A DNA stretch of 64,000 bases from the NCBI GenBank assembly GCA_963724765.1, contig CAVRVY010000002.1, positions 384,001 to 448,000 of the forward strand, in the 5' to 3' direction. This document shows positions 51,219 through 62,215 of the stretch, piece by piece (position 1 is the first letter of the stretch; every line of letters starts with the position of its first letter). Both the position numbers and the translations under genes were made by a program. This DNA comes from an uncultured delta proteobacterium (lineage in GTDB: Bacteria; Desulfobacterota; Binatia; Binatales; Binataceae). The notes under the pieces are model-generated. The model did no database searches, was not told the origin of the DNA, and saw only the letters and a program-made list of their open reading frames with translations.

Positions 51219-51746
51219 ATGGACTCCCTGATGGAACAGCTGACCCGCACGGTCGCGCAGCGCACTTCGCGCCGTGGCTTCCTGGCCCGGATGGGCAAAT
51301 TGATGCTCGGGGGGATGGTCCTGCCGCTTTTGCCAATCGATCGCGTGATGGGGAGCGCACAGGCGCAGATGACGATGGGTGCGACCGGCACCGGACGCAC
51401 TGACGATCCCTCGACCTGCGACTACTGGCGCTATTGCGGCTTCGATGGGAACCTATGCGGCTGCTGCGGCGGCAGCCATACCGAGTGCCCCGCCGGCACT
51501 ATCATGTCGCCGACCTCGTGGGTGGGCACCTGCCGGGATCCCAACGACGGCAAGGAATACATAATTGGCTATCGCGACTGTTGCGGCAAAGACGTATGTG
51601 GCCGCTGCTTTTGCGAAAATAACAAGGGCGACATGCCCATTTACCGGACTCAACTGGATAACGGAGTCATCTGGTGCTTCGGAACAAAACCTTCATCCTA
51701 CGTCGTCAACTGCACGACGGCCGTCCGACTCGGTCTCAAAACCTGA
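51219..51746 (+). CDS. mauA: TTQ amine dehydrogenase small subunit, copy 1
   Basis: Tat motif TSRRGFL; CDYWRYC, SWVGTC, YRDCCG, VIWCFG (both TTQ Trp present). Confidence 0.93.
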   Translation: MDSLMEQLTRTVAQRTSRRGFLARMGKLMLGGMVLPLLPIDRVMGSAQAQMTMGATGTGRTDDPSTCDYWRYCGFDGNLCGCCGGSHTECPAGTIMSPTSWVGTCRDPNDGKEYIIGYRDCCGKDVCGRCFCENNKGDMPIYRTQLDNGVIWCFGTKPSSYVVNCTTAVRLGLKT

Positions 51747-52231
51747 GTCCTCGTACCTGGCTGATTGCGGCCGCGTGCGCGGTCGTGCTCTCGGCGGGCG
51801 CAGCCACCGCGCAGGCGGACGGCCACAACGTCTTCATCTCGAATTGCGCCGTATGCCATCAGCCCGACGGCAAGGGCGCGCCCTCGGTTTATCCGCCGCT
51901 GGCCGACTCGGTAGGCCGCTATGTGGCGCTCAAGGATGGCCGCGCCTACATTATCGACGTGGTGTCGTTCGGGATGGGCGGCAAGATCGAATCCGACGGC
52001 GACAGGTTCGAGGGCGACATGCCGCCGTGGCCGCAGTTGAGTGACCAGGACGTCGCCGAGGTGCTCACCTACGTCCTGACGGGCCTCAATTCCAAGCTGC
52101 TGCCCGCGGATTTCAAGCCGATCTCCGCGGACGAAGTCAAAGCGGAGCGCGCCAAGCAGCTTACCGCCGCCGGCATCCATGCCGAGCGCGAATCGCTGCT
52201 TAAAAAGCTGGACAGCAAGGCCGCGAAGTAG
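51743..52231 (+). CDS. Monoheme cytochrome c (probable CTG start overlapping the mauA stop)
   Basis: Signal peptide ending AQA; CAVCH; GDMPPW distal Met; LSDQDVAEVLTYV. Confidence 0.85.
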   Translation: MSPRTWLIAAACAVVLSAGAATAQADGHNVFISNCAVCHQPDGKGAPSVYPPLADSVGRYVALKDGRAYIIDVVSFGMGGKIESDGDRFEGDMPPWPQLSDQDVAEVLTYVLTGLNSKLLPADFKPISADEVKAERAKQLTAAGIHAERESLLKKLDSKAAK

Positions 52232-52245
52232 GACGCGCGCCTGCG

Positions 52246-52722
52246 ATGAAACCGCGCGCTATCGCCGTGCTGATCGCCGCGCTCTCGATTGCGAGCACCG
52301 CGCTGGCCGGCGGCTCGCCGGCCGAGCTGTACACGCTCAACTGCTGGGGCTGTCACAAGCCACGCGCCGAAGGCATACCCGGCACCGTTCCGCGCCTGGC
52401 GGACTCGATGGCGGATTTTCTGCATGTGCCCGGCGGACGCGAGTATCTTGTCGAGGTGCCGGGCGTAGCGGCCTCTGCGCTGAGCGATGCCGAAATCGCG
52501 CAGGTGCTCAACTGGCTGCTCTTCAACTTCAACAAGGCCGAGATGCCAGCGGATTTTAAACCTTACACCGCTGCCGAGATCGCACGGGTCCGGCCGCATC
52601 AACTGATTCGCATTACCGAAACCCGCGACGACCTGGTCAAACGGCTAAAGGCCAAAGGCATAATCGTCCCCGACGACCAGCTTGCGGGCGAGGCGCTCGC
52701 GACCCCGCTCGCGCAGCACTAA
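52246..52722 (+). CDS. Monoheme cytochrome c
   Basis: Signal peptide; YTLNCWGCH, GREYLVEVPGV, LSDAEIAQVLNW. Confidence 0.88.
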   Translation: MKPRAIAVLIAALSIASTALAGGSPAELYTLNCWGCHKPRAEGIPGTVPRLADSMADFLHVPGGREYLVEVPGVAASALSDAEIAQVLNWLLFNFNKAEMPADFKPYTAAEIARVRPHQLIRITETRDDLVKRLKAKGIIVPDDQLAGEALATPLAQH

Positions 52723-52867
52723 CGGAAGGTGCCCGGGCCGCGGGGCCGCGTGGCGGAGCAACTGGCATCGCGGGGCGGGCGATGCTACTGGAAACGCTGG
52801 CAGGAGCGCAGCGGGAACCGGCCTTGGGGATTCCGGGGGCGCGCCTGGCGAAACAGGAGACGGGCGA

Positions 52868-53389
52868 ATGGACGCACTGGTGGAACGTCTTTCACGAACG
52901 GTGGCGCAGCGGACCTCGCGGCGCGGCTTTCTGGGCTACCTGGGCAAGGCGCTGGTGGGCGGGATGATGATTCCGCTGCTGCCGATCAACCGGGTGGTGG
53001 AACAGGCGCAGGCGCAGATGAGCGAGGGGCCCACGGCGGAGGGCGAGGGGGGCGATCTGACGAGTTGCGATTACTGGCGCTACTGCGGCTTCGACGGCTA
53101 CCTGTGCAGTTGCTGCGGCGGGGCGCTGACTTCGTGTCCGCCGGGGACGGTGGCGTCGCCGACCTCGTGGGTGGGGACGTGCCAGCATCCGACCGACGGC
53201 AAGGAATACATCATCGCGTACCGGGACTGCTGCGGTAAGGACGTATGCAACCGCTGCTTCTGCGACAACAACAAGGGGCAGGTGCCGATCTACCGGCCGC
53301 AGTTGGACAACGACATCATCTGGTGCTTCGGGGCCAAGAACTTCGCCTACCACTGCACCACGGCGATCCGATTGGGCGTCAAAACCTGA
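52868..53389 (+). CDS. mauA: TTQ amine dehydrogenase small subunit, copy 2
   Basis: AGGAG RBS; Tat motif TSRRGFL; SWVGTC, YRDCCG, NDIIWCFG, YHC. Confidence 0.93.
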   Translation: MDALVERLSRTVAQRTSRRGFLGYLGKALVGGMMIPLLPINRVVEQAQAQMSEGPTAEGEGGDLTSCDYWRYCGFDGYLCSCCGGALTSCPPGTVASPTSWVGTCQHPTDGKEYIIAYRDCCGKDVCNRCFCDNNKGQVPIYRPQLDNDIIWCFGAKNFAYHCTTAIRLGVKT

Positions 53390-53460
53390 CCGCTTGGCTT
53401 AGGCTGTACTTTCTGACCAGCGCGCGCCGCTGAGCGCGCCGGCGCGCGGCCGCAACCGGT

Positions 53461-54888
53461 ATGGACGAACGCAAATTCGCCGAGGCCCTGGAACGTGCGT
53501 CCGCGTGGGTCGTGCGCTACTTCGAGCGTACGCGCGAGTTCCCCGTGCTGTCGCAAGTGCACCCGGGCGAGGTCGCCGCCGCGATGGGGCCCGCGATGCC
53601 GGAGGAGGGCGAAGACTTCGACGCCCTGCTCGACGACTTCGAGCGCATCGTGGTCCCCGGCATCACGCACTGGAACCATCCGCGCTTTTTCGCCTACTTC
53701 TCGATCACCGGCTCGGAGCCGGCCGTGCTGGCCGAGTTGCTCGCCGCAGCGCTCAACGTCAACGGGATGCTGTGGCGGACCTCGCCGGCGGCGACCGAGG
53801 TCGAGGAGGTCGCGCTCAAGTGGCTGCGCGACGCGCTGGGCCTGCCGCCGAGCTTCTTCGGTGTGGTGTACGATACCGCCAGCGTCTCGGGGCTGCATGC
53901 GCTGGCGGCCGCGCGCGAGTCGCTCGGGCTTGACGTGCGCAATCTCGGCACTGCGGGTCGCGATCTTCCGCGCCTGCGCGTCTACTGCACTGACCAGACC
54001 CACTCGCACATAGAGAAGGATGCGATCCTGCTCGGCGTGGGCCGCGAAAACGTGGTCAAGATCGCAACCGACGGTGCGTTCAGGATGGACCCGGCAGCGC
54101 TCGACCGCGCGATCGCTGAGGATCTCGCGCGCGGCTTTTTGCCGATGGCCGTGGCGGCAACGGTGGGCACCACCTCGACCACCTCGGTCGATCCGGTCGC
54201 CGCGATCGCCGAGGTCTGTCGCGCGCATCGCATATGGCTGCACGTCGACGCCGCCTACGCCGGGCCCGCGGCGATCGTGCCGGAGTTGCGCTGGCTGCTC
54301 GACGGCGCCGCGGCGGCCGACTCGCTGGTGGTCAATCCGCACAAGTGGATGTTCGTGCCAGTCGATCTTTCGATCCTCTACACCCCGCATGAGCCGCTGC
54401 TGCGCCGCGCGTTCAGCCTGATCCCGGCCTACCTCGAGACGCCCGAGAGCGAAGTGCGCAATTACATGGACTACGGCGTGCAACTGGGCCGGCGCTTTCG
54501 CGGCCTGAAGCTGTGGTTCGTGCTGCGCGCATACGGGCGGCGCAGGATGGTCGAGATAATCCGCAGCCACGTCGCCTGGGCGCAGGAACTGGCACGATGG
54601 ATCGGTGAGGCCGGCGATTTCGAAACCCTGGCGCCGCATCCGCTGTCGGTGGTCTGCTTCCGGCACCTGCCCGCGGGGCTTGCGCAAAGCCCCGGCGCGC
54701 TTGACCAGCACAATCAGCGCGTGGTCGACGAGATCAACCGCGGCGGCTTCGCGTTTCTCTCAACCACGCGGCTTAACGAACGCGTCGCGATACGCTTCGC
54801 GATCGGTAACGCGCGCACCACGGTCGCCGACCTGCGCGAGACCTGGGATCTGTTGCTGACCACCGCCCGTCGTCTCGCCAACGCCTGA
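53461..54888 (+). CDS. PLP-dependent group II (aromatic L-amino acid-type) decarboxylase
   Basis: PGITHWNHPRFFAYF, TSPAATEVE, HVDAAY, NPHKW (PLP Lys), LGRRFRGLKLW. Confidence 0.92.
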   Translation: MDERKFAEALERASAWVVRYFERTREFPVLSQVHPGEVAAAMGPAMPEEGEDFDALLDDFERIVVPGITHWNHPRFFAYFSITGSEPAVLAELLAAALNVNGMLWRTSPAATEVEEVALKWLRDALGLPPSFFGVVYDTASVSGLHALAAARESLGLDVRNLGTAGRDLPRLRVYCTDQTHSHIEKDAILLGVGRENVVKIATDGAFRMDPAALDRAIAEDLARGFLPMAVAATVGTTSTTSVDPVAAIAEVCRAHRIWLHVDAAYAGPAAIVPELRWLLDGAAAADSLVVNPHKWMFVPVDLSILYTPHEPLLRRAFSLIPAYLETPESEVRNYMDYGVQLGRRFRGLKLWFVLRAYGRRRMVEIIRSHVAWAQELARWIGEAGDFETLAPHPLSVVCFRHLPAGLAQSPGALDQHNQRVVDEINRGGFAFLSTTRLNERVAIRFAIGNARTTVADLRETWDLLLTTARRLANA

Positions 54889-55436: not shown

Positions 55437-56384
55437 ATGAAGAGTAAGTGGACAACCCTTATAGCGGCATTTTTTGGTCTTTCGGTCGGGCTTGTCTTAA
55501 TGGGCTCGCAGGTCGCTTGGGCCAAGGTCGCTCGTCCGTTTGTGGGGGCAGTAGATCCCACGAATGTCTCCGGCTGCACGACGCTCAGCGGGAATGGCAC
55601 CATCTATCTGTTGACGCAGAACATCACTACTACTGGTACCGGCAACTGCATCGTTGTCAGCGGCCATGACGACACCCTGGATCTCCAGGGTTTCAATATC
55701 ACGGGACCTGGCGACTCCTCGAACGGAGATGGAATTAGGATTACGGGTAGCGAAAACGTGATTGAAGGTTTTAATGGCACCATCTCCGGGTTTGCGGTGG
55801 GCGTGTACGATGTCGGAGCGAACACCGCCGGCGATGGGATCAACGTCGAATCAAACACAGTCGGGCTGGAGATGGCCGGATCGGGCGAAGCAACGGAAAT
55901 TTGGACCAATTTTTCCGCGGACGGTAACAGCGAGCAGGGGGTCTACCTCAAAAGTTGTGGCGATGAGTGCAGCATTAGCGACTTCGACGCGTCGAATAAC
56001 GGCGCCGATGGCTTGCTCATAACGGGTTCGGAGGGACCGAGGATCAGTATCTTCACGGCGCTTGACAATGGCGGTGACGGCGTGCACGTAGGCTGCACGT
56101 CCGGTTGCGGCAGCAATTCCGAGGTCAAAGTCGGCGACGCGCCCATCGGGATTACGACTACGCCTGCGATTAGCGGAAACGCGGGTGACGGAGTTTTCCT
56201 GGATGCAAGCGAGTCGAGCAACCAGGACCAGGTCTACGTCATGAATTCGACTGGCAATGGCGGGATCGATCTACACGATGCGAGCAGCACGTGCGGCAAC
56301 AACCATTGGGTTCACAACAACTTCGGTACGTCCAAGGCCGGCTCTGTGACGAGTCCCAGCTGCATTCCGCTGAGCCCGTTCTGA
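55437..56384 (+). CDS. Secreted right-handed parallel beta-helix protein
   Basis: Signal peptide; TLDLQGFNITG, repeated N..DG(V/I/L).(I/L) units, paired Cys. Confidence 0.75.
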   Translation: MKSKWTTLIAAFFGLSVGLVLMGSQVAWAKVARPFVGAVDPTNVSGCTTLSGNGTIYLLTQNITTTGTGNCIVVSGHDDTLDLQGFNITGPGDSSNGDGIRITGSENVIEGFNGTISGFAVGVYDVGANTAGDGINVESNTVGLEMAGSGEATEIWTNFSADGNSEQGVYLKSCGDECSISDFDASNNGADGLLITGSEGPRISIFTALDNGGDGVHVGCTSGCGSNSEVKVGDAPIGITTTPAISGNAGDGVFLDASESSNQDQVYVMNSTGNGGIDLHDASSTCGNNHWVHNNFGTSKAGSVTSPSCIPLSPF

Positions 56385-56589: not shown

Positions 56590-57579
56590 CTAAAGCGCAG
56601 TGCGGCGAACGTTCAAGTCGCGCAGGATCGCCTCTCTCACATCGGGAAGCGCGGAAAATTCGTTGGGTACGATGAGGCGTTTGACCGGGACGCGCCCGGC
56701 GACGAAGGACAGAAAATGGAACTGACGCTTCAGCATCGCGCGGTCGTTAATGTCGAGCCGGTAGGCCGCTTTGACCAGCCCCATAAGCGCATCCCCGAAA
56801 GCGAGTTCCCGGATCACGATCCGATCTAAGCGTTTGCTCGAGCGCGAGCGCTTGAGCAAATAGACGCGCGCGAGGCGGCGCCTTGTCGAGCAGAAGTCGG
56901 CGCGTCGAGAGCGGTCTTGCCAGCGCGATTTCGTCGTATAGCCGGCGACTGGCTTCAGATTTCGTGAACTTGCGCCAAGTCCCCGCATCGAATCGTCCCA
57001 CAACCGCAAGCCCGGATAGCCGGGGAGCGCCATGATGGCAGGGCCCTTGGCCAGCGCCAGGCAATCATCGCAGACCAGCGGATACCCCGATAACACGAAG
57101 CTCGCGGCGAGCGTCGATTTACCCGAGCCTGCAGGACCTGTGAACGCGCAAACGCCCTTGGGCGTCGCGATGGCGGTAGCATGGAGCGCCTCACGTCCAC
57201 GCAGGTTTACTACCAGCGGAAGCACCTGGTCGATCAGGAGATGTCTGATGGTTTCGAGGCTGTGGTCGCGGTTGGCGTTGCAGCAGACTATCTGGCTCCC
57301 GGAGCGGTCAACGATAAAATCGGCAATATCAGGAAACGACAGTACATAGTCCTCCGCGGTGGTACCGTAGCGAAGCCACATCTTGCCGCCTGGCGGCCGC
57401 GAATGCAGGTACCATCGAGGATTGAGCCGCACGTGCCGAAATCGTCCGCCAAGAATCGCGCGAACGGTCGCCTTACGCGCCGGTGCCTGAAGAGCGGAAA
57501 ACTCCGCAAGCGGGAGGTCTGAAACTATTCGCAGCCCGTAGGCCTGCTGAGGAAAGTCCGGGATCTCGGTCTGCTCAGG
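56590..57579 (-). CDS. HPr kinase-like P-loop kinase (RiPP-associated); true start unresolved
   Basis: LHATAI, GPAGSGKST, LVCDD; the frame stays open 49 codons upstream of GTG 57432 and includes YGLRIVSDLPL. Confidence 0.82.
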   Translation of the reverse strand, partial: PEQTEIPDFPQQAYGLRIVSDLPLAEFSALQAPARKATVRAILGGRFRHVRLNPRWYLHSRPPGGKMWLRYGTTAEDYVLSFPDIADFIVDRSGSQIVCCNANRDHSLETIRHLLIDQVLPLVVNLRGREALHATAIATPKGVCAFTGPAGSGKSTLAASFVLSGYPLVCDDCLALAKGPAIMALPGYPGLRLWDDSMRGLGASSRNLKPVAGYTTKSRWQDRSRRADFCSTRRRLARVYLLKRSRSSKRLDRIVIRELAFGDALMGLVKAAYRLDINDRAMLKRQFHFLSFVAGRVPVKRLIVPNEFSALPDVREAILRDLNVRRTAL

Positions 57580-57641
57580 TCAGCGATGGTTCGCGCCGAC
57601 CGGAAAATGTCCTGTTGAAACCACCCGATTTATCCTGCGGA

Positions 57642-57685
57642 GAAAAAACACGGCCCGCTTCTTTCCCAAAGGTCCGAAGCGGCCA
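57642..57685 (-). terminator. Terminator-like hairpin after the precursor gene
   Basis: Minus strand: GGCCGCTTC...GAAGCGGGCC followed by GTGTTTTTTC. Confidence 0.65.
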
Positions 57686-57736
57686 TAATTTCATCAACGC
57701 AACCAGCTGGTCGAGAATTGGAAGTCAGATTCGGGA

Positions 57737-57892
57737 TCAGACCATGCGAGACCTGCCGTCAAAAGGGGGAATACTACCACCCGACGATGTGAGTTTTGCC
57801 ACGTCGCCATACTCTACAAGGCGAGGACGGGCATAAGCTTTCTTGATGGGCCGTATTTCTGGCTTTTTGAGCTCTTTCTTGGCTTTAGTCAT
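57737..57892 (-). CDS. Lasso peptide precursor, 51 aa (not in ORF track)
   Basis: MTKAKKELKKPEIRPIKKAYARPRLVEYGDVAKLTS|SGGSIPPFDGRSRMV: YxxPxL motif, G-x5-T with Thr at -2, core Ser1 and Asp9; AGGAG RBS 6 nt upstream. Confidence 0.88.
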   Translation of the reverse strand: MTKAKKELKKPEIRPIKKAYARPRLVEYGDVAKLTSSGGSIPPFDGRSRMV

Positions 57893-58062
57893 GCTTGCTC
57901 CTGTAGCTCCGTTTGCAGCTCCTACTGCATTAAGGCAATGCGCCTCTTTATATAGAAGTATTCCGCGTCTTGCAACCTGCGTAAAGCGCTCGTCAGTTAA
58001 TTTGTCCTTGTGTTACTTAGTCGTGAGATAACACGATATCAGAAGAGATAACTAGGGTCAAA

Positions 58063-59208
58063 TCAACCGCCGTCTGCGTCAGGGAGGATAATTTTGGCTA
58101 CGAATTCCGACGCTTTAGCCAACGAAGGGAAAAGATCCGGATGAATCCGGATCATTTCTCTTTCTATTTCCGACAGCGTGCGTGTTCCATTTGCCAAGTT
58201 GACCGCAGACCTTCGCGCCAAACCCCACTCCGACAACCGAGGCACAAAGTCCGGCCGTGTCTTAGCCAACTCCCGTGGCATCAGCACCGTACTCTTAAGC
58301 GTGGAATGTACAAACCGTGCCTTCTCCCTACTCTTGGTATCAAGAACCAGGACCTTCCAGCTAACGAGATTCTGGGTGGTGATAGCTGTGATCGTAATAT
58401 TCAGAAACTCTCCTTTCTTCAGCACGACAGGCTTCTCGATCGGAAAGAACACGGCAGACCGTTTGATCCGCTTCTTGCTGAAGGGCGAGTTGGTAATGAT
58501 GACGCCTGGCGTCAGCTCGGCAATGAACCAGCCGCTAAGACCGTGCATGATGCCGGCCGCTGAAACCCTGATCTCCGCTTTCGCCGTGAAATGTTCCGGT
58601 GTCAGGTCCGTGAGGTCGAAGGTGACGAGGTGGGCGGGTTCGCCCAGCATTCGGCGCGGGCGCTTCTCGCTCGGGTAAGCGAAGTTGAATGCAATGCTGC
58701 GTGCCGGCGACATCGTCAGCCCCGCATGTCTATGTTTCCAGAAGCCTGCGATGCGCCACATTTCGGGAAAATTCACTGGCGCGAGGAACAGCTCGAGGCG
58801 TCGAGGTATAGCACGGGCGCCCGGCTTGAGCAGACGCCGACGGACGTCGTTGAATATCTCGGGCATCCCGGCGCCGATTCCGAAATAGCCTAGCTGATCT
58901 GCGATCACGACGTCGGCCTTTTCGGGAAGCTTCACACGACCGGAGTTTTCGTGAATCCCAAAGGTACTTTGCCCGTAACCATTCGCGGCGGCTACGTCGC
59001 GGGCGATTTGGATCATCGGCGTCTGATCAACCTGGTATACTTTCGCGGCCCCCGCCTCCATCGCGAGCAGGCCAAGCACGCCTGTCCCACAGGCGAGGTC
59101 AAGCACGATGTCTCCAGGCTTGACCACCGCGTTAATCGCCCGTCGAAACGCTGACGTTCGGTACAGGTCGGAGAGATACAGGCGATGCTCGTCTAGCATC
59201 AGAGACAT
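58063..59208 (-). CDS. Protein arginine methyltransferase (PRMT)-like SAM-dependent methyltransferase
   Basis: EH..YLSD..RT..F..AI, VLDLACGTGVL, GAAKVY, LPEKADVVIADQLG, RRLLKPG...IP, HGLSGWF beta-barrel segment. Confidence 0.8.
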   Translation of the reverse strand: MSLMLDEHRLYLSDLYRTSAFRRAINAVVKPGDIVLDLACGTGVLGLLAMEAGAAKVYQVDQTPMIQIARDVAAANGYGQSTFGIHENSGRVKLPEKADVVIADQLGYFGIGAGMPEIFNDVRRRLLKPGARAIPRRLELFLAPVNFPEMWRIAGFWKHRHAGLTMSPARSIAFNFAYPSEKRPRRMLGEPAHLVTFDLTDLTPEHFTAKAEIRVSAAGIMHGLSGWFIAELTPGVIITNSPFSKKRIKRSAVFFPIEKPVVLKKGEFLNITITAITTQNLVSWKVLVLDTKSREKARFVHSTLKSTVLMPRELAKTRPDFVPRLSEWGLARRSAVNLANGTRTLSEIEREMIRIHPDLFPSLAKASEFVAKIILPDADGG

Positions 59209-59245
59209 TTTGCCGGTTCCATTCCAGTTAGCTCTAACTTACTCG

Positions 59246-61195
59246 TCAGAAAGCCGCTGCCCTGGTTTCGGTTACGTGCTTGAATGGATCGCTGATACCC
59301 AGACACACCACGCTGAACCAGAGTTCGATCGCAAAGACACTCCATAGTTCCAAGACATAATCCATGTAAGAGGGATCGCGCCGGGAAAATGATTCGGCCA
59401 TCGAGCGGTAAAACTCGCGCACAACGACGCCATCGACCCATCCGTTTTTCACGACGTTTAGGCGATCGAACAGGCGCTCCCCTCCAAGCGCATTCACTGC
59501 CATGGGGAATAACTCCGTAAGGTCGGCCTTGTCCGACCGCAGTCGTAGTCGCTCCGGCAGGATTCCCCGCATCGAATTGCGCAGCACGAACTTGCTGACG
59601 CCGGGCCTGAATCGTTGATCAGTAGGTATGGCGTAGGCGAACTCGAGTATCCGACGGTCCAGGAAAGGATTGCGTCCCTCCATTCGAAAGCCCGCAGTCC
59701 AGCGGGCGTCCATCTCCAGCGCATACGGAAGCCATCCGGATGAGTAGCATAGATACAACTTCTGCTGCGTGACGGTGCGGCAGTGGGGCACGGGCGGCCT
59801 CGTGGTCAGCCGCTCCAGAAGTCCCGTCCTGGCCGCGAACTCGGGTGTAATGAACGTGGGAAGCTCAGGCGGACGCAGCCATGGCCTGAGCGCGGTCTTG
59901 AGACCGTTCGGCATGAGCGGAAGGACTCCCCACCGCGCCAGGGCTTTAGCATAGCCGGGGAAGGGCGCGAACCCATTCAATGGCTGTCGATCGCTCCGCA
60001 TCATCCGCACCAGCGCCACGATGCGAAGCTGCCTCAGCAAGTCTGCGTAGGCAGCGTACGTTGCGCCGAACCATTCGTCGCCACCTAACCCGCTCAGCCT
60101 GACTCTAAGGTCGTTGCGATGGCCAAGGAGCGGCGTGTAATCGGCGCACACAGCATTGGGAGAATCCGGGAGGTCCAGGTAATGCGCTACTTGGGCGATG
60201 AGTTGGTCCAGCGGAGGCATTCCGGGAGCAAGATAGGTATGGCGATGAGGATACTTACTCAATACCTCTTCGACGTACTGAGTTTCGGCGGCAGGGCCGG
60301 ACTCGAAGCGAACCGAGAAGGTTTCAAAACTTGGGAGTTGCACTTTGCCGTCGTGGAGAAATTGTTCGGTAACACAGACTATGGACGAAGAATCAAGGCC
60401 GCCGCTCAGCTCCGAGGCAACTCCTTTGTTACTGCGAAGGTGGGATCGCATTACCTTCTTGAACAGCGAAAGAAAATGCTCGGAGTATTCGTCGTCGCTG
60501 CGATAGGTAATCTCCCGCGAGGCATCCAGATCGTGGTAGCGGCGGCATTCAACGCCGCGCGCGCTCACGCTGAGATGGTGCGCCGGCGCGAGGCGGCGGA
60601 TACCTTCGAAGAGCGTCTCCTCGCGGTCAACCGGAAGCCTCACTAGCATGTCGGCTATAGCCCGCTCGTTCGGCTTTCGTACGACCCTTGGATCCTGAAA
60701 CAGTTGATGAAGCTCCGAGGCGCACAGAAAGAATCCCGGACCATCGAAGTAGTAGAAGCCCTTTACTCCCAAAGGATCGCGGGCACAAAAAAGTGTCCGC
60801 TTCGATGGGTCCCACAATGCAAACGCGAAGTCGCCTATGATCCTTGTCGGGGCGTCCGCGGCCCAACACTGCCAGGCCCGCAGGACGATCTCGGCGTCCG
60901 TGCCCGTGCGAACGCGATGGCCCCGAGAATTAAGCTCGGCCAGGAGTTCGTCGCGGTTATCCACCCGCCCGTCCATCGATAGAACGAGTCCGCTGGTTTC
61001 GTCCACGAACGGGCTGGTCTCGGCAGCAGCTTCGGGCGTGGTCTGAAGCTTTGCATGCCCAAGAGCGATATTGCCGTTGCTCCATACGCCAGAGCCGTCA
61101 ATCGAGCAATACGGAATGGCAGCAATCATCCGCTCGACAGTCGAGCGGTCCGCTGGAGCCCCGTCCCACTGATATAGGGCCGCGACGCCACTCAT
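59246..61195 (-). CDS. Lasso cyclase (asparagine synthetase B homolog)
   Basis: N-terminal MSG (Ser in place of the catalytic Cys), GRVDNRDEL, ARDPLG, ELSGGLDSS, SGLGGDE, RNPFLDRR. Confidence 0.88.
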   Translation of the reverse strand: MSGVAALYQWDGAPADRSTVERMIAAIPYCSIDGSGVWSNGNIALGHAKLQTTPEAAAETSPFVDETSGLVLSMDGRVDNRDELLAELNSRGHRVRTGTDAEIVLRAWQCWAADAPTRIIGDFAFALWDPSKRTLFCARDPLGVKGFYYFDGPGFFLCASELHQLFQDPRVVRKPNERAIADMLVRLPVDREETLFEGIRRLAPAHHLSVSARGVECRRYHDLDASREITYRSDDEYSEHFLSLFKKVMRSHLRSNKGVASELSGGLDSSSIVCVTEQFLHDGKVQLPSFETFSVRFESGPAAETQYVEEVLSKYPHRHTYLAPGMPPLDQLIAQVAHYLDLPDSPNAVCADYTPLLGHRNDLRVRLSGLGGDEWFGATYAAYADLLRQLRIVALVRMMRSDRQPLNGFAPFPGYAKALARWGVLPLMPNGLKTALRPWLRPPELPTFITPEFAARTGLLERLTTRPPVPHCRTVTQQKLYLCYSSGWLPYALEMDARWTAGFRMEGRNPFLDRRILEFAYAIPTDQRFRPGVSKFVLRNSMRGILPERLRLRSDKADLTELFPMAVNALGGERLFDRLNVVKNGWVDGVVVREFYRSMAESFSRRDPSYMDYVLELWSVFAIELWFSVVCLGISDPFKHVTETRAAAF

Positions 61196-61241
61196 CAGAT
61201 CGAAGTGCCGAGGTGACGGCCCGGGGCCTTCGGTTTTGGTC

Positions 61242-61526
61242 TCACCGCAAGTCGCTTTTGGATTCAGCTATCAGTTGCACGAGTCTCTTTTCGACAAGTT
61301 GATCCAAGAGCTTGTCGAGGTCGTGCCGTAGTTCATCGGGCTCGACGTCGAAGTCCCGCTGGAGCGATTCCAAGGTCTTTTCCATGGAACCGTGTTCGAC
61401 GAGTTCACGCCATATCTGGCCACCCGAGCCGTCAAGGCCGAAGTAGAGACCCGTTTCGAGGTTCAGGATGACCACGTCGCCGCCGACATCCTGCCATACG
61501 ACGCCATCGCTGATTTCGACGCGCAT
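61242..61526 (-). CDS. PqqD family RiPP recognition element (lasso B1)
   Basis: VWQDVGGDVVILNLETGLYFGLDGSGGQIW..L, FDVEP.EL..DL..LL..L.EKRLV; AAGGA RBS. Confidence 0.92.
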   Translation of the reverse strand: MRVEISDGVVWQDVGGDVVILNLETGLYFGLDGSGGQIWRELVEHGSMEKTLESLQRDFDVEPDELRHDLDKLLDQLVEKRLVQLIAESKSDLR

Positions 61527-62215
61527 CGAGCTTTCCTTTCGAATGGCGCGGACCGTTGCCTCCCGCCCAGACACCAGCAAAGCAATGTAGAACTTCTCTT
61601 TCCCTGCGGTCGCTGAAGCAATTTTCGCCGTGCAGGCTATCATTTCTCCTGCGAATCCGCGATGGGCGGTTCCTCACCGTGAACCCGAAGAGCCGCGAGC
61701 TGGGCTGCGTGCGGCACCTCGCTCACCTGCGCCCGGCCGTCCCTGAATCTTTGATTTTCTCGCCCTTCGGATCGAGCCGTAAGTGTGCCGCGACCAAGCT
61801 GTCCGCGCAAAAATTCACTGGTTATCTTTTTTTGACGATAGTTGGGAAACTGCTCCCAGCTTTGGCGCTAATATTAGCTGATTTCGTGAGCCATATTATT
61901 GAAAAATAGCGAAAATTGAGCCTCAAAACCGATAAAAAGAGCGATAAGGTTCATTTGCGAAGCTTGCTCCATACTTGCCAAATACTATCAATAAGCCATT
62001 AAAGCTCGCATATTCGACATATTCGAGCGTCGTTCAGATGAGGAACAGGCCCGCGCGCGAAGCTCTACCATAGTTGGGTAAATGTAGCTAAGCTCGGCCT
62101 GTGTGAAGAGCGTGATTGCCGAGACAAAGAATGATGCGAATTGCCTCGATACTTCGCGATACCGCTGCCGAAGAGGGCATCGCATGAATGAGTCTATAGA
62201 TGGCGGTATGATCGT

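Follow-up and report, generated by a model that had tools for sequence, protein, structure and literature searches.

Which group does an enzyme with the fold of a protein arginine methyltransferase (PRMT) methylate when it is encoded in a lasso peptide cluster? This question is raised by a 64,000-nucleotide stretch of DNA (hereafter, the window) from an uncultured bacterium of the family Binataceae (GenBank assembly GCA_963724765.1, contig CAVRVY010000002.1, positions 384,001 to 448,000). Lasso peptides, which belong to the ribosomally synthesized peptides with post-translational modifications (RiPPs), form a well-studied scaffold for antibiotics and engineering, and each added tailoring enzyme widens the range of products that can be made. 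The original prediction had placed five genes on the minus strand at 56590-61526, and it had proposed that their product may be methylated at arginine. We find all five with these coordinates and in this order. They are B1 (a RiPP recognition element, RRE), C (cyclase), MT (S-adenosylmethionine, SAM, methyltransferase), A (precursor) and K (kinase), and the set spans 56590-61643 when the reading frame of B1, which remains open upstream of its ATG at 61526 as far as 61643, is counted in full.

Comparing these genes with their relatives, we judge it likely that the core half of a class II lasso pathway is encoded in the window, that MT acts on an acceptor other than arginine, and that the remainder of the pathway lies on another contig. 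The MT-kinase pair, usually adjacent, defines a widespread and uncharacterised lasso subfamily that is apparently unpublished. New here are the two-locus architecture and its origin, a clade of precursors without Cys, evidence that speaks against sulfur as the acceptor throughout the family, and the occurrence of the kinase-MT pair in radical-SAM clusters.

The PRMT-like label of MT holds as a statement of homology. A profile built from 22 family members matched, over positions 8-275, the PRMT2, PRMT6, PRMT3, PRMT8, CARM1 and PRMT1 entries of the Protein Data Bank (PDB) with E-values from 4e-42 to 1e-36. The AlphaFold2 (AF2) model of MT (predicted local distance difference test, pLDDT, 85.7; predicted template modelling score, pTM, 0.73) has the Rossmann SAM domain and the beta-barrel of the PRMT fold, and a Foldseek search with this model returned PRMTs only at the top ranks (for PRMT1, E ~1e-25 and a template modelling (TM) score of 0.69-0.71 by the query and 0.79-0.84 by the target). 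MT resembles PRMT1, 2, 3, 6, 8 and CARM1 in its Rossmann domain, its PRMT_C oligomerisation barrel, and its N-terminal helix with His/Asp/Arg contacts to SAM. Its look-alikes in the ESM Atlas bear generic names only, such as "L11 methyltransferase family".

The residues that contact SAM (the GTG motif, D14, R17 and D99) are near-invariant in the family, whose conservation we counted over 99 distinct sequences, and an acidic residue after strand 2 is kept. The substrate loops are changed. In a HMMER alignment to PRMT2, the SEW glutamate falls on Asp104 of MT and the adjacent Trp on Gln105; the second glutamate of the double-E loop, nine residues further, falls on Ala113; and the Thr, His and Trp of the THW loop fall on Arg247, Ile248 and Arg250 (R-I-x-R). 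We take the two double-E glutamates (E144 and E153 in PRMT1) to be the holders of the guanidinium, and H293 of the THW loop to be catalytic. Across the 99 sequences, position 104 is Asp in 93 and Glu in 6, position 105 is Gln in 82, and position 113 is Ala in 73, Gly in 9, Ser in 5 and Tyr in 5. At position 250, the site of the THW Trp, Arg occurs in 91 sequences and Trp in 7, and R9 is Arg in 79.

Since the SAM contacts are kept and the substrate loops are changed, MT looks like an active enzyme with another acceptor. Of the functional features that mark a type I PRMT, the double-E loop and the THW loop were not found, and a substrate arginine, though present in the window core, occurs in only 25 of 80 cognate cores; judged from sequence, MT belongs to the PRMT superfamily by fold and departs from it in these three functional respects. 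Unlike the eukaryotic PRMTs, it has a D/A double-E loop, the R-I-x-R motif, an extra three-helix domain, a bacterial RiPP setting, and substrates that mostly lack Arg. The arginines gained at loop positions (R250, R9) would fit an anionic acceptor. A PRMT fold whose arginine clamp has given way to Asp/Ala/Arg is a clear natural example of a repurposed active site, and identifying the acceptor would define both a reaction new to the fold and a new kind of peptide modification.

The extra C-terminal domain comprises three helices at residues about 327-374 of the AF2 model, and it is missing in the stand-alone 317-aa relatives L079 and L084, which have no RiPP neighbours. We considered it as a remnant of a PqqD/RRE domain and found no support for this: aligned by hhalign to 61 PqqD sequences, it matched over just 7 columns, with E 0.11. 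The LxxGxRT(L)xEIE stretch resembles an RRE by eye only, and we do not call it an RRE. A Pfam search of this domain with E-values up to 10 returned nothing. A predicted complex of MT with the 51-aa precursor and SAM scored 0.02 against a mark of 0.32, in a run without controls that speaks neither for nor against binding.

Cognate cores and candidate methyl acceptors

The leader of the precursor comprises residues 1-36, and its predicted core, SGGSIPPFDGRSRMV, has 15 residues with an isopeptide ring between Ser1 and Asp9. Residues Y20, P23, L25 and T35 stand at -17, -14, -12 and -2 relative to the core, and these four positions match those that PMC10368454 names for BsfA. In a six-frame search of the 5.4-Mb genome, a hidden Markov model (HMM) of the leader gave a single match (E 5e-13; next best 0.2). 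Thus, with exactly one match in the genome, the identification of the precursor is not a matter of chance. The Ser at core position 1 and the Thr at leader position -2 are those of class II lasso precursors, and the acceptor Asp9 falls within core positions 7-9, where an Asp or Glu is expected. The RRE, the AsnB-type cyclase without Cys and the precursor with its YxxPxL and Thr(-2) together bear out the reading of the locus as a lasso system. The precursor sequence recurs unchanged in contigs from four DNA sequencing runs, one of which is possibly the source sample; the contig of that run (X1) spans the whole gene with 0 differences.

To compare cognate cores, we collected 103 precursor hits and kept those that lie within 400 bp of MT and have a core of fewer than 45 residues, which left 80 distinct cores including that of the window. 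Dropped for lying more than 400 bp from MT were the precursors of L007, L013, L033/L160, L038 and L053, the second or third precursors of L034 and L035, and the type 2 precursors (see below); the long fusion precursors of L054 and L063 and the precursor of L060, which does not match the leader pattern, were also set aside. The ring acceptor is at position 8 in 39 of the 80 cores, at 9 in 37 and at 7 in 3, with one unassigned, so that the 15-mer with a Ser1-Asp9 ring, as first proposed, fits the family as a prediction. The closest relative, L092, has the core SGGSVPPIDAMARMV, which ends in Met-Val like that of the window.

Which residues could then serve as the acceptor? Arg occurs in 25 of the 80 cores, Lys in 26, either of the two in 46, and His in 13. 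Cys is found in 55, Met in 73, and a Cys-Leu end in 51. Every core has a Ser or Thr (inside the ring in 78, in the tail in 64), and a second acidic residue occurs in just 9. In the nearest clade, whose MT is 76-80% identical to that of the window, all cores lack Cys, several such as SGGSAPPSDGMSGMTGPPM lack any basic residue, and MT is kept intact. These compositions mean that Arg, Lys, His and Cys cannot be the common acceptor of the whole family. Met is doubtful as well, because the precursors of L033/L160 (core GGGNSTNDTLSKRKGG), L007 (core GVNGSNNDPGQGNQTKRGNG) and L157 contain neither Met nor Cys. The former two stand in a B1b-B2-MT-C arrangement, more than 2 kb from MT; L157 is the sole type 2 precursor found beside an intact MT2. 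What every core appears to offer is a ring Ser/Thr, usually as Gly-Ser/Thr at position 4 or 5, and the C-terminal carboxylate.

Two further acceptors were tried and rejected. Methylation of Asp as by a protein isoaspartate methyltransferase (PIMT) would need a spare Asp, and the ring acceptor is the only Asp of the core. Methylation of the N-terminus is rejected because the ring consumes the alpha-amine.

In the original prediction, MT might place one or two methyl groups on the guanidino groups of Arg11 and/or Arg13 in the GRSRMV tail. The homology to PRMTs over ~270 residues including the beta-barrel, the retained SAM-binding residues, the acidic D104 that still occupies the first double-E site, the two Arg of the window core, and the R/K-M near the C-terminus of many cores in the nearest clade all speak for such a peptidyl-arginine N-methyltransferase. 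Yet the second double-E glutamate is replaced by Ala, Gly or Ser, the His and Trp of the THW loop by Ile and Arg, and the arginine itself is absent from most cognate cores, with either Arg or Lys in no more than 46 of the 80. The relatives L085 and L087-L089 even combine an intact MT of 77-78% identity with cores free of Arg, Lys and His. We find guanidino methylation unsupported and regard it as very improbable. Methylation of sulfur, on the thiol of the Cys that ends in Cys-Leu many of the tails or, in cores without Cys such as that of the window, on a tail Met as a sulfonium, has more in its favour, and we still rate it as unlikely. Sulfur is abundant, all seven cores without Met have Cys, and with a thioether or thiolate as nucleophile the double-E loop would be dispensable. 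Against it stand the nearest clade, entirely without Cys, and the precursors named above with no sulfur at all. It would also leave the gained invariant Arg unexplained, and the richness in Met could serve the function of the peptide itself, for instance in binding metal.

The kinase and its pairing with the methyltransferase

K matches its family weakly (TIGR04352 HprK_rel_A, 26.5 bits, below the cut-off; the Hpr(Ser) kinase 3tqf, E 0.025). It carries the complete H-x14-G-x2-G-x-G-K-S-x15-D-D motif, HATAIATPKGVCAFTGPAGSGKS...CDD, with the spacing of BsfK; PMC10368454 reports this H...GxxGxGKS...DD motif as conserved and mutation-sensitive in lasso kinases. A C-terminal Ser acceptor of the paeninodin type was not found, as the window core ends in Val and 51 of the 80 family cores in Cys-Leu. 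A candidate acceptor of the BsfK type is present as Ser4 in the ring. BsfK, the one characterised lasso kinase with a non-C-terminal target, phosphorylates ring Ser3 in a reaction that depends on or is stimulated by B1, according to PMC10368454. Phosphorylation of the tail Ser, as the original prediction had it, is possible, but the ring Ser/Thr is the better kept of the two (78 against 64 of the 80 cores).

Performing a neighbourhood analysis, we examined genome loci for the best 80 of 237 confirmed MT relatives and identified the neighbours by blastp or by the leader HMM. C lies beside MT in 67 loci, K in 69, the precursor in 64, and all three together in 58. A PqqD gene is found in 66, the leader peptidase gene B2 in 38, a nucleotidyltransferase in 40 and an exporter in 27. 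Many of these contigs are short; if only loci flanked on each side by 3 kb or more are counted (53 in all), C is present in 48, K in 49 and A in 46. The start of K overlaps the end of MT or lies within 60 bp of it in 49 of the 80 loci. L062, L072 and L082, which are kinase-less by blastp, carry HprK-related open reading frames (ORFs) by NCBIfam, and the only full-flank loci without a kinase-like gene are L079 and L084, with their short stand-alone MT. Among 29 close metagenome relatives (MT 65-89% identical), each contig has C, A or K beside MT. The precursor is visible in 24 of them, and the other 5 contigs stop inside MT or at most 10 bases after it. Enrichment of MT homologues beside lasso precursors had been set out beforehand as a test of the lasso role of MT; it is strong and supports that role. 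By the labels of the metagenome-assembled genomes (MAGs), the subfamily occurs in Acidobacteriota, Nitrospira, Binataceae, Rokuibacteriota/Methylomirabilota, Actinomycetota, Planctomycetota, Myxococcota and several proteobacterial groups.

The kinase-MT pair of L072 and L082 stands in a cluster with PqqD and radical-SAM/SPASM genes, which is not a lasso cluster; thus, the pair is shared between RiPP classes. These arrays (L072:133-5520 and L082:4690-10742) encode PqqD, one or more radical SAM/SPASM maturases, the HprK-related protein, MT, a signal-peptidase-I-like protein and an ABC transporter. They also hold an ORF of 390-400 aa that is weakly like a nucleotidyltransferase by blastp.

Two other arrangements were seen among the precursors near MT. 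In L054 (7598-7978) and L063 (7437-7955), lasso-type precursors beside MT are fused at their C-terminus to a Peptidase_S74 domain (30-31 bits; cut-off 22). This is the self-cleaving "chaperone of endosialidase" domain, and the C-terminus of the L054 and L063 cores would then arise by autoproteolysis. To our knowledge, no lasso precursor with a Peptidase_S74 domain has been described. In L035 (7795-7995), a precursor copy reads GGAGSGD and then RRRRRCQHDHDV..., with an apparently frameshifted tail, and an intact-looking second copy lies 70 bp upstream.

Four points speak for a coupling of MT to the kinase: the two genes are nearly always adjacent; they are jointly present in the radical-SAM clusters; MT is lost in some clusters where K stays (see below), while no MT in a full-flank RiPP context is without a kinase-like gene; and invariant arginines are gained at active-site loop positions. 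We tentatively put forward the phosphate installed by K as the methyl acceptor. The C-terminal carboxylate, likewise an anionic oxygen, is favoured nearly as much, and each of the two taken singly is less likely than not. Apart from these two, and from sulfur and arginine, what remains is shared between other acceptors and a lack of activity.

A broader idea is that kinase and PRMT-fold enzyme act in two steps as one tailoring unit, which passes from one RiPP class to another (lasso and radical-SAM/SPASM) and makes an O-methyl phosphate diester on a conserved Ser/Thr; we hold this to be rather doubtful. If true, this diester would be a mark undescribed for RiPPs and its maker the first PRMT-fold enzyme to methylate oxygen. 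Lasso tails rich in Met/Cys or His/Met are common in MAGs with the labels Nitrospira, Methylomirabilota/Rokuibacteriota, Binataceae and Acidobacteriota, and in that case they could be ligands for soft metals such as Cu(I) rather than antibiotics.

A second locus and the proposed route

The window holds no B2 (a transglutaminase-like leader peptidase), nucleotidyltransferase or exporter gene, and the missing leader peptidase had been noticed correctly from the start. Across the whole genome (5.4 Mb, 4 contigs, 97% complete), the genes for the precursor, C, MT, K, B2 and the nucleotidyltransferase are each present once, and PqqD occurs twice. The sole B2 gene (Transglut_core3, 73.1 bits) is on another contig, at G000:C1:90427-90768. 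Its neighbours are the second PqqD gene (72.9 bits; B1b), an NTP_transf_5 nucleotidyltransferase (NT; 204.7 bits) 33 bp past B2, and an ABC exporter (D). The B1b/B2 pair is at about 89.7-90.8 kb of G000:C1, and the remnant in which NT follows B2 is at L002:8359-12140 (about 90.3-94.1 kb). The nucleotidyltransferase ORF has a run of about seven SSQT repeats. The B2 gene that lasso clusters carry is thus found in the genome and not in the locus, and the pathway belongs to the lasso class by its precursor, RRE, cyclase and ring acceptor, while its peptidase would come from another part of the genome.

How did this split arise? We compared 40 related genomes and found two cluster types. Type 1, that of the window (B1-C-MT-A-K), occurs in G001, G005, G009 and G014, with no B2 in the stretches examined around the clusters of G001, G005 and G009. 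Type 2 reads B1b-(MT2)-B1b'-B2-C2-A2-K2-NT-D, has cores such as GTTGTSTDKGHMANMHGQG, and is complete in G003, G013, G014 and G016 and partial in G006; G009 retains a B1b-B2-K-NT-D remnant. The remote genes of the window genome are closely related to components of complete type 2 clusters (B1b 86-95%, B2 80-87%, NT 71-79% and D 75-81% identical). NT directly follows B2 there, and related genomes have C2, A2 and K2 between these two genes, which identifies the remote locus as a type 2 remnant that lost C2, A2 and K2. G014 has both types next to each other. In L008, L009 and L011, which belong to other phyla, a nine-gene single array, B1b-B2-B1-C-MT-A-K-NT-D, holds everything together.

The type 2 clusters also show MT going while the kinase stays: MT is lost or broken and K retained in G003, G016, G013 and G006. 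In G003 and G016, MT2 is missing between the two PqqD genes, and the kinase and precursor remain. MT copies with in-frame TGA stops, or fragments of MT, were seen in genomes of this genus, at G002:C7:523072-524199 and G013:C24:9950-10486 (L121, L124).

Such losses raise the question of whether the window cluster itself is a decaying remnant that yields no mature lasso peptide, having lost its peptidase, nucleotidyltransferase, exporter and Cys-Leu end. The gaps in the window, the loss of cyclase, precursor and kinase from the second locus, and the TGA-broken MT copies in G002 and G013 would all agree with decay. No RNA run was listed as holding the stretch, which counts neither for nor against decay. 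We consider it quite improbable, since the ORFs of all five window genes and all four remote genes are unbroken and keep the motifs of their families, with identities of 73-85% (MT) and 71-95% (B1b, B2, NT and exporter) to their relatives and orthologues. The layout without B2 recurs in G001, G005 and G009, as it does in contigs from metagenomes that have flanks of 3-6 kb. In the nearest clade, at least 8 distinct cores share a tail without Cys, which makes it a lineage trait and not a lesion. No Cys-Leu remnant was found past the precursor stop codon in the in-frame read-through translation, and none was seen by eye in the two other frames. Type 1 leaders resemble those of type 2 (KKPYxxPRLxEYGxVAKLT), which makes processing of one by the enzymes of the other plausible.

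We propose the following route for the window pathway. B1 would bind the linear precursor through the YxxPxL leader, and K would phosphorylate a core Ser, most likely ring Ser4, on the RRE-bound linear precursor, by analogy with BsfK and its Ser3. MT would move one methyl group from SAM onto a non-arginine acceptor, with an anionic oxygen favoured. The B1b/B2 pair, encoded in trans, would cut off the leader after Thr(-2)-Ser(-1), C would close the Ser1-Asp9 ring about the GRSRMV tail, and the remote ABC transporter would export the product.

Several points weigh against this picture. We found no precedent for a methyl phosphate ester or for an O-methyltransferase of the PRMT fold. The linkage of K and MT could stem from shared ancestry or from a common need for the RRE and not from sequential chemistry. 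The 80 MT loci are mutually related, and their counts overstate the independent support. The predicted threading would involve a ring of 9 residues and a tail of 6, which is short. B1 scores 50.3 bits against NCBIfam lasso_PqqD_Bac, under the cut-off of 80, and C scores 424.5 bits (E 7.8e-127) against NF033535, below its cut-off of 525 bits. The service of the remote B1b/B2, nucleotidyltransferase and exporter to the window precursor in trans is suggested by the gene inventory, and a further gene could be missing from an assembly of 4 contigs that is 97% complete. The type 1 cluster of G014 has no K of its own in the stretch examined; the nearest is K2, ~7 kb upstream in the adjacent cluster.

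How does this pathway compare with known lasso systems? The bsf cluster of Bradymonas sediminis (BsfA/B1/B2/C/D/K/N; PMC10368454) is similar in its split B1/B2, its HprK-like kinase motif, its nucleotidyltransferase and its ABC exporter. Before cyclisation and with help from the RRE, its kinase modifies a Ser inside the ring segment of the precursor, much as we would expect of the window kinase. Unlike the window cluster, bsf is described there with no methyltransferase, with Ile(-2) instead of Thr(-2), and as one locus instead of two contigs. In the paeninodin and pseudomycoidin type (PadeK, ThcoK, SyanK, PsmK/PsmN; PMC9266682, PMC8498205), an HprK-homologous kinase also tailors a class II precursor before folding, and pseudomycoidin has an NTP_transf-type tailoring enzyme as well; as described, however, the paeninodin-type kinases target a C-terminal Ser, where the window core has Val, and their clusters lack a PRMT-like MT. 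Judging by gene content, the window pathway is a member of this kinase-bearing group with one enzyme added.

Methyltransferases in lasso clusters have precedents of another kind. In the lassomycin type (LasF, StspM; PMC9266682, PMC8498205), a SAM methyltransferase acts on the linear precursor, and StspM methylates the C-terminal carboxylate (PMC9266682). StspM was modelled there on mitomycin 7-O-methyltransferase with a His/Glu catalytic pair, which places it in a family other than that of the window MT; it is described from actinobacterial clusters and with no kinase partner (PMC9266682, PMC8498205). TceM and LihM of cellulonodin-2 and lihuanodin (PMC9266682, PMC13352647) are likewise lasso tailoring methyltransferases, but of the isoaspartyl-methyltransferase fold; they act on a ring Asp of the threaded peptide to give an aspartimide, and the window core has no spare Asp. 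The overviews in three reviews (PMC8498205, 2021; PMC9266682, 2022; PMC13352647, 2026) name just two lasso modifications that depend on an MT, methylation at the C-terminus and the formation of an aspartimide. Our full-text searches, whose coverage leaves out most subscription journals, returned no paper in which a lasso cluster has a PRMT-like enzyme.

The two-locus layout has a practical side. Mining or cloning that is limited to a contiguous cluster would miss the peptidase and the exporter. PMC12670498 reports that lasso clusters of a "Group II" with "phospho- or methyltransferases" were cloned from soil, and that the peptides of the other clusters went undetected in E. coli. Cloning of contiguous DNA only may be one reason why such soil clusters yield no product in that host.

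Layout of the window cluster and its neighbours

The features of the cluster are listed in Table 1. C has class II GATase domains (GATase_7/6) besides Asn_synthase by Pfam, and it is the sole gene of its kind in the genome. Its N-terminus is MSG, so that it is without the Cys2 nucleophile of true AsnB asparagine synthetases. K has an alternative start, an ATG 17 codons downstream of its GTG.

Table 1. Features of the lasso cluster, in window coordinates
Feature	Position	Strand	Evidence
B1, PqqD-family RRE (leader-binding chaperone), 94 aa from ATG at 61526	61242..61526	-	Pfam PqqD 54.8 bits
C, lasso macrolactam cyclase, AsnB homologue, 649 aa	59246..61195	-	Asn_synthase 138 bits, GATase_7 94.8 bits
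MT, PRMT-fold SAM methyltransferase, 381 aa	58063..59208	-	PrmA 38.2 bits, PRMT_C 36.1 bits
A, 51-aa lasso precursor	57737..57892	-	NF033521 lasso_leader_L3 22.6 bits (cut-off 19)
Terminator-like hairpin and U-run, 53-96 nt past the precursor stop codon	57641..57684	-	Folding energy; putative function
K, HprK-like peptide kinase, 280 aa from GTG	56590..57432	-	Complete kinase motif, weak family matches

The hairpin after the precursor gene, folded as minus-strand 57636-57700, has -28.5 kcal/mol (z -3.68; 0 of 200 shuffles equal). A scan for consensus terminators missed it because its loop is longer than 8 nt. That scan, run for promoters and terminators together, gave no excess over shuffled DNA (2 sites against 1.9, and 6 against 5.8). 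A sigma-70-like TTGACC-17-TATCGT site with a TG extension lies at 58033-58061 on the minus strand, between the MT stop and the precursor start, where it would be the precursor's own promoter; as promoter-like matches are no commoner than in shuffles, we treat it as a pattern match only.

The G+C content of the cluster stretch is 0.51-0.61, against 0.62-0.69 in the DNA upstream of 54500. The plus-strand genes that border the cluster at 51674-54888 encode two c-type cytochromes, the light chain of a methylamine dehydrogenase (167 bits) and a pyridoxal-phosphate (PLP)-dependent decarboxylase (297 bits), with no apparent link to the lasso genes. Adjoining the kinase gene, at 55437-56384 on the plus strand, is an ORF of 315 aa that matched nothing in Pfam or NCBIfam. 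The G+C content is low there (0.54-0.58), and its product has a signal-like N-terminal segment followed by a repetitive body rich in Gly, Asn, Asp, Thr and Ser.

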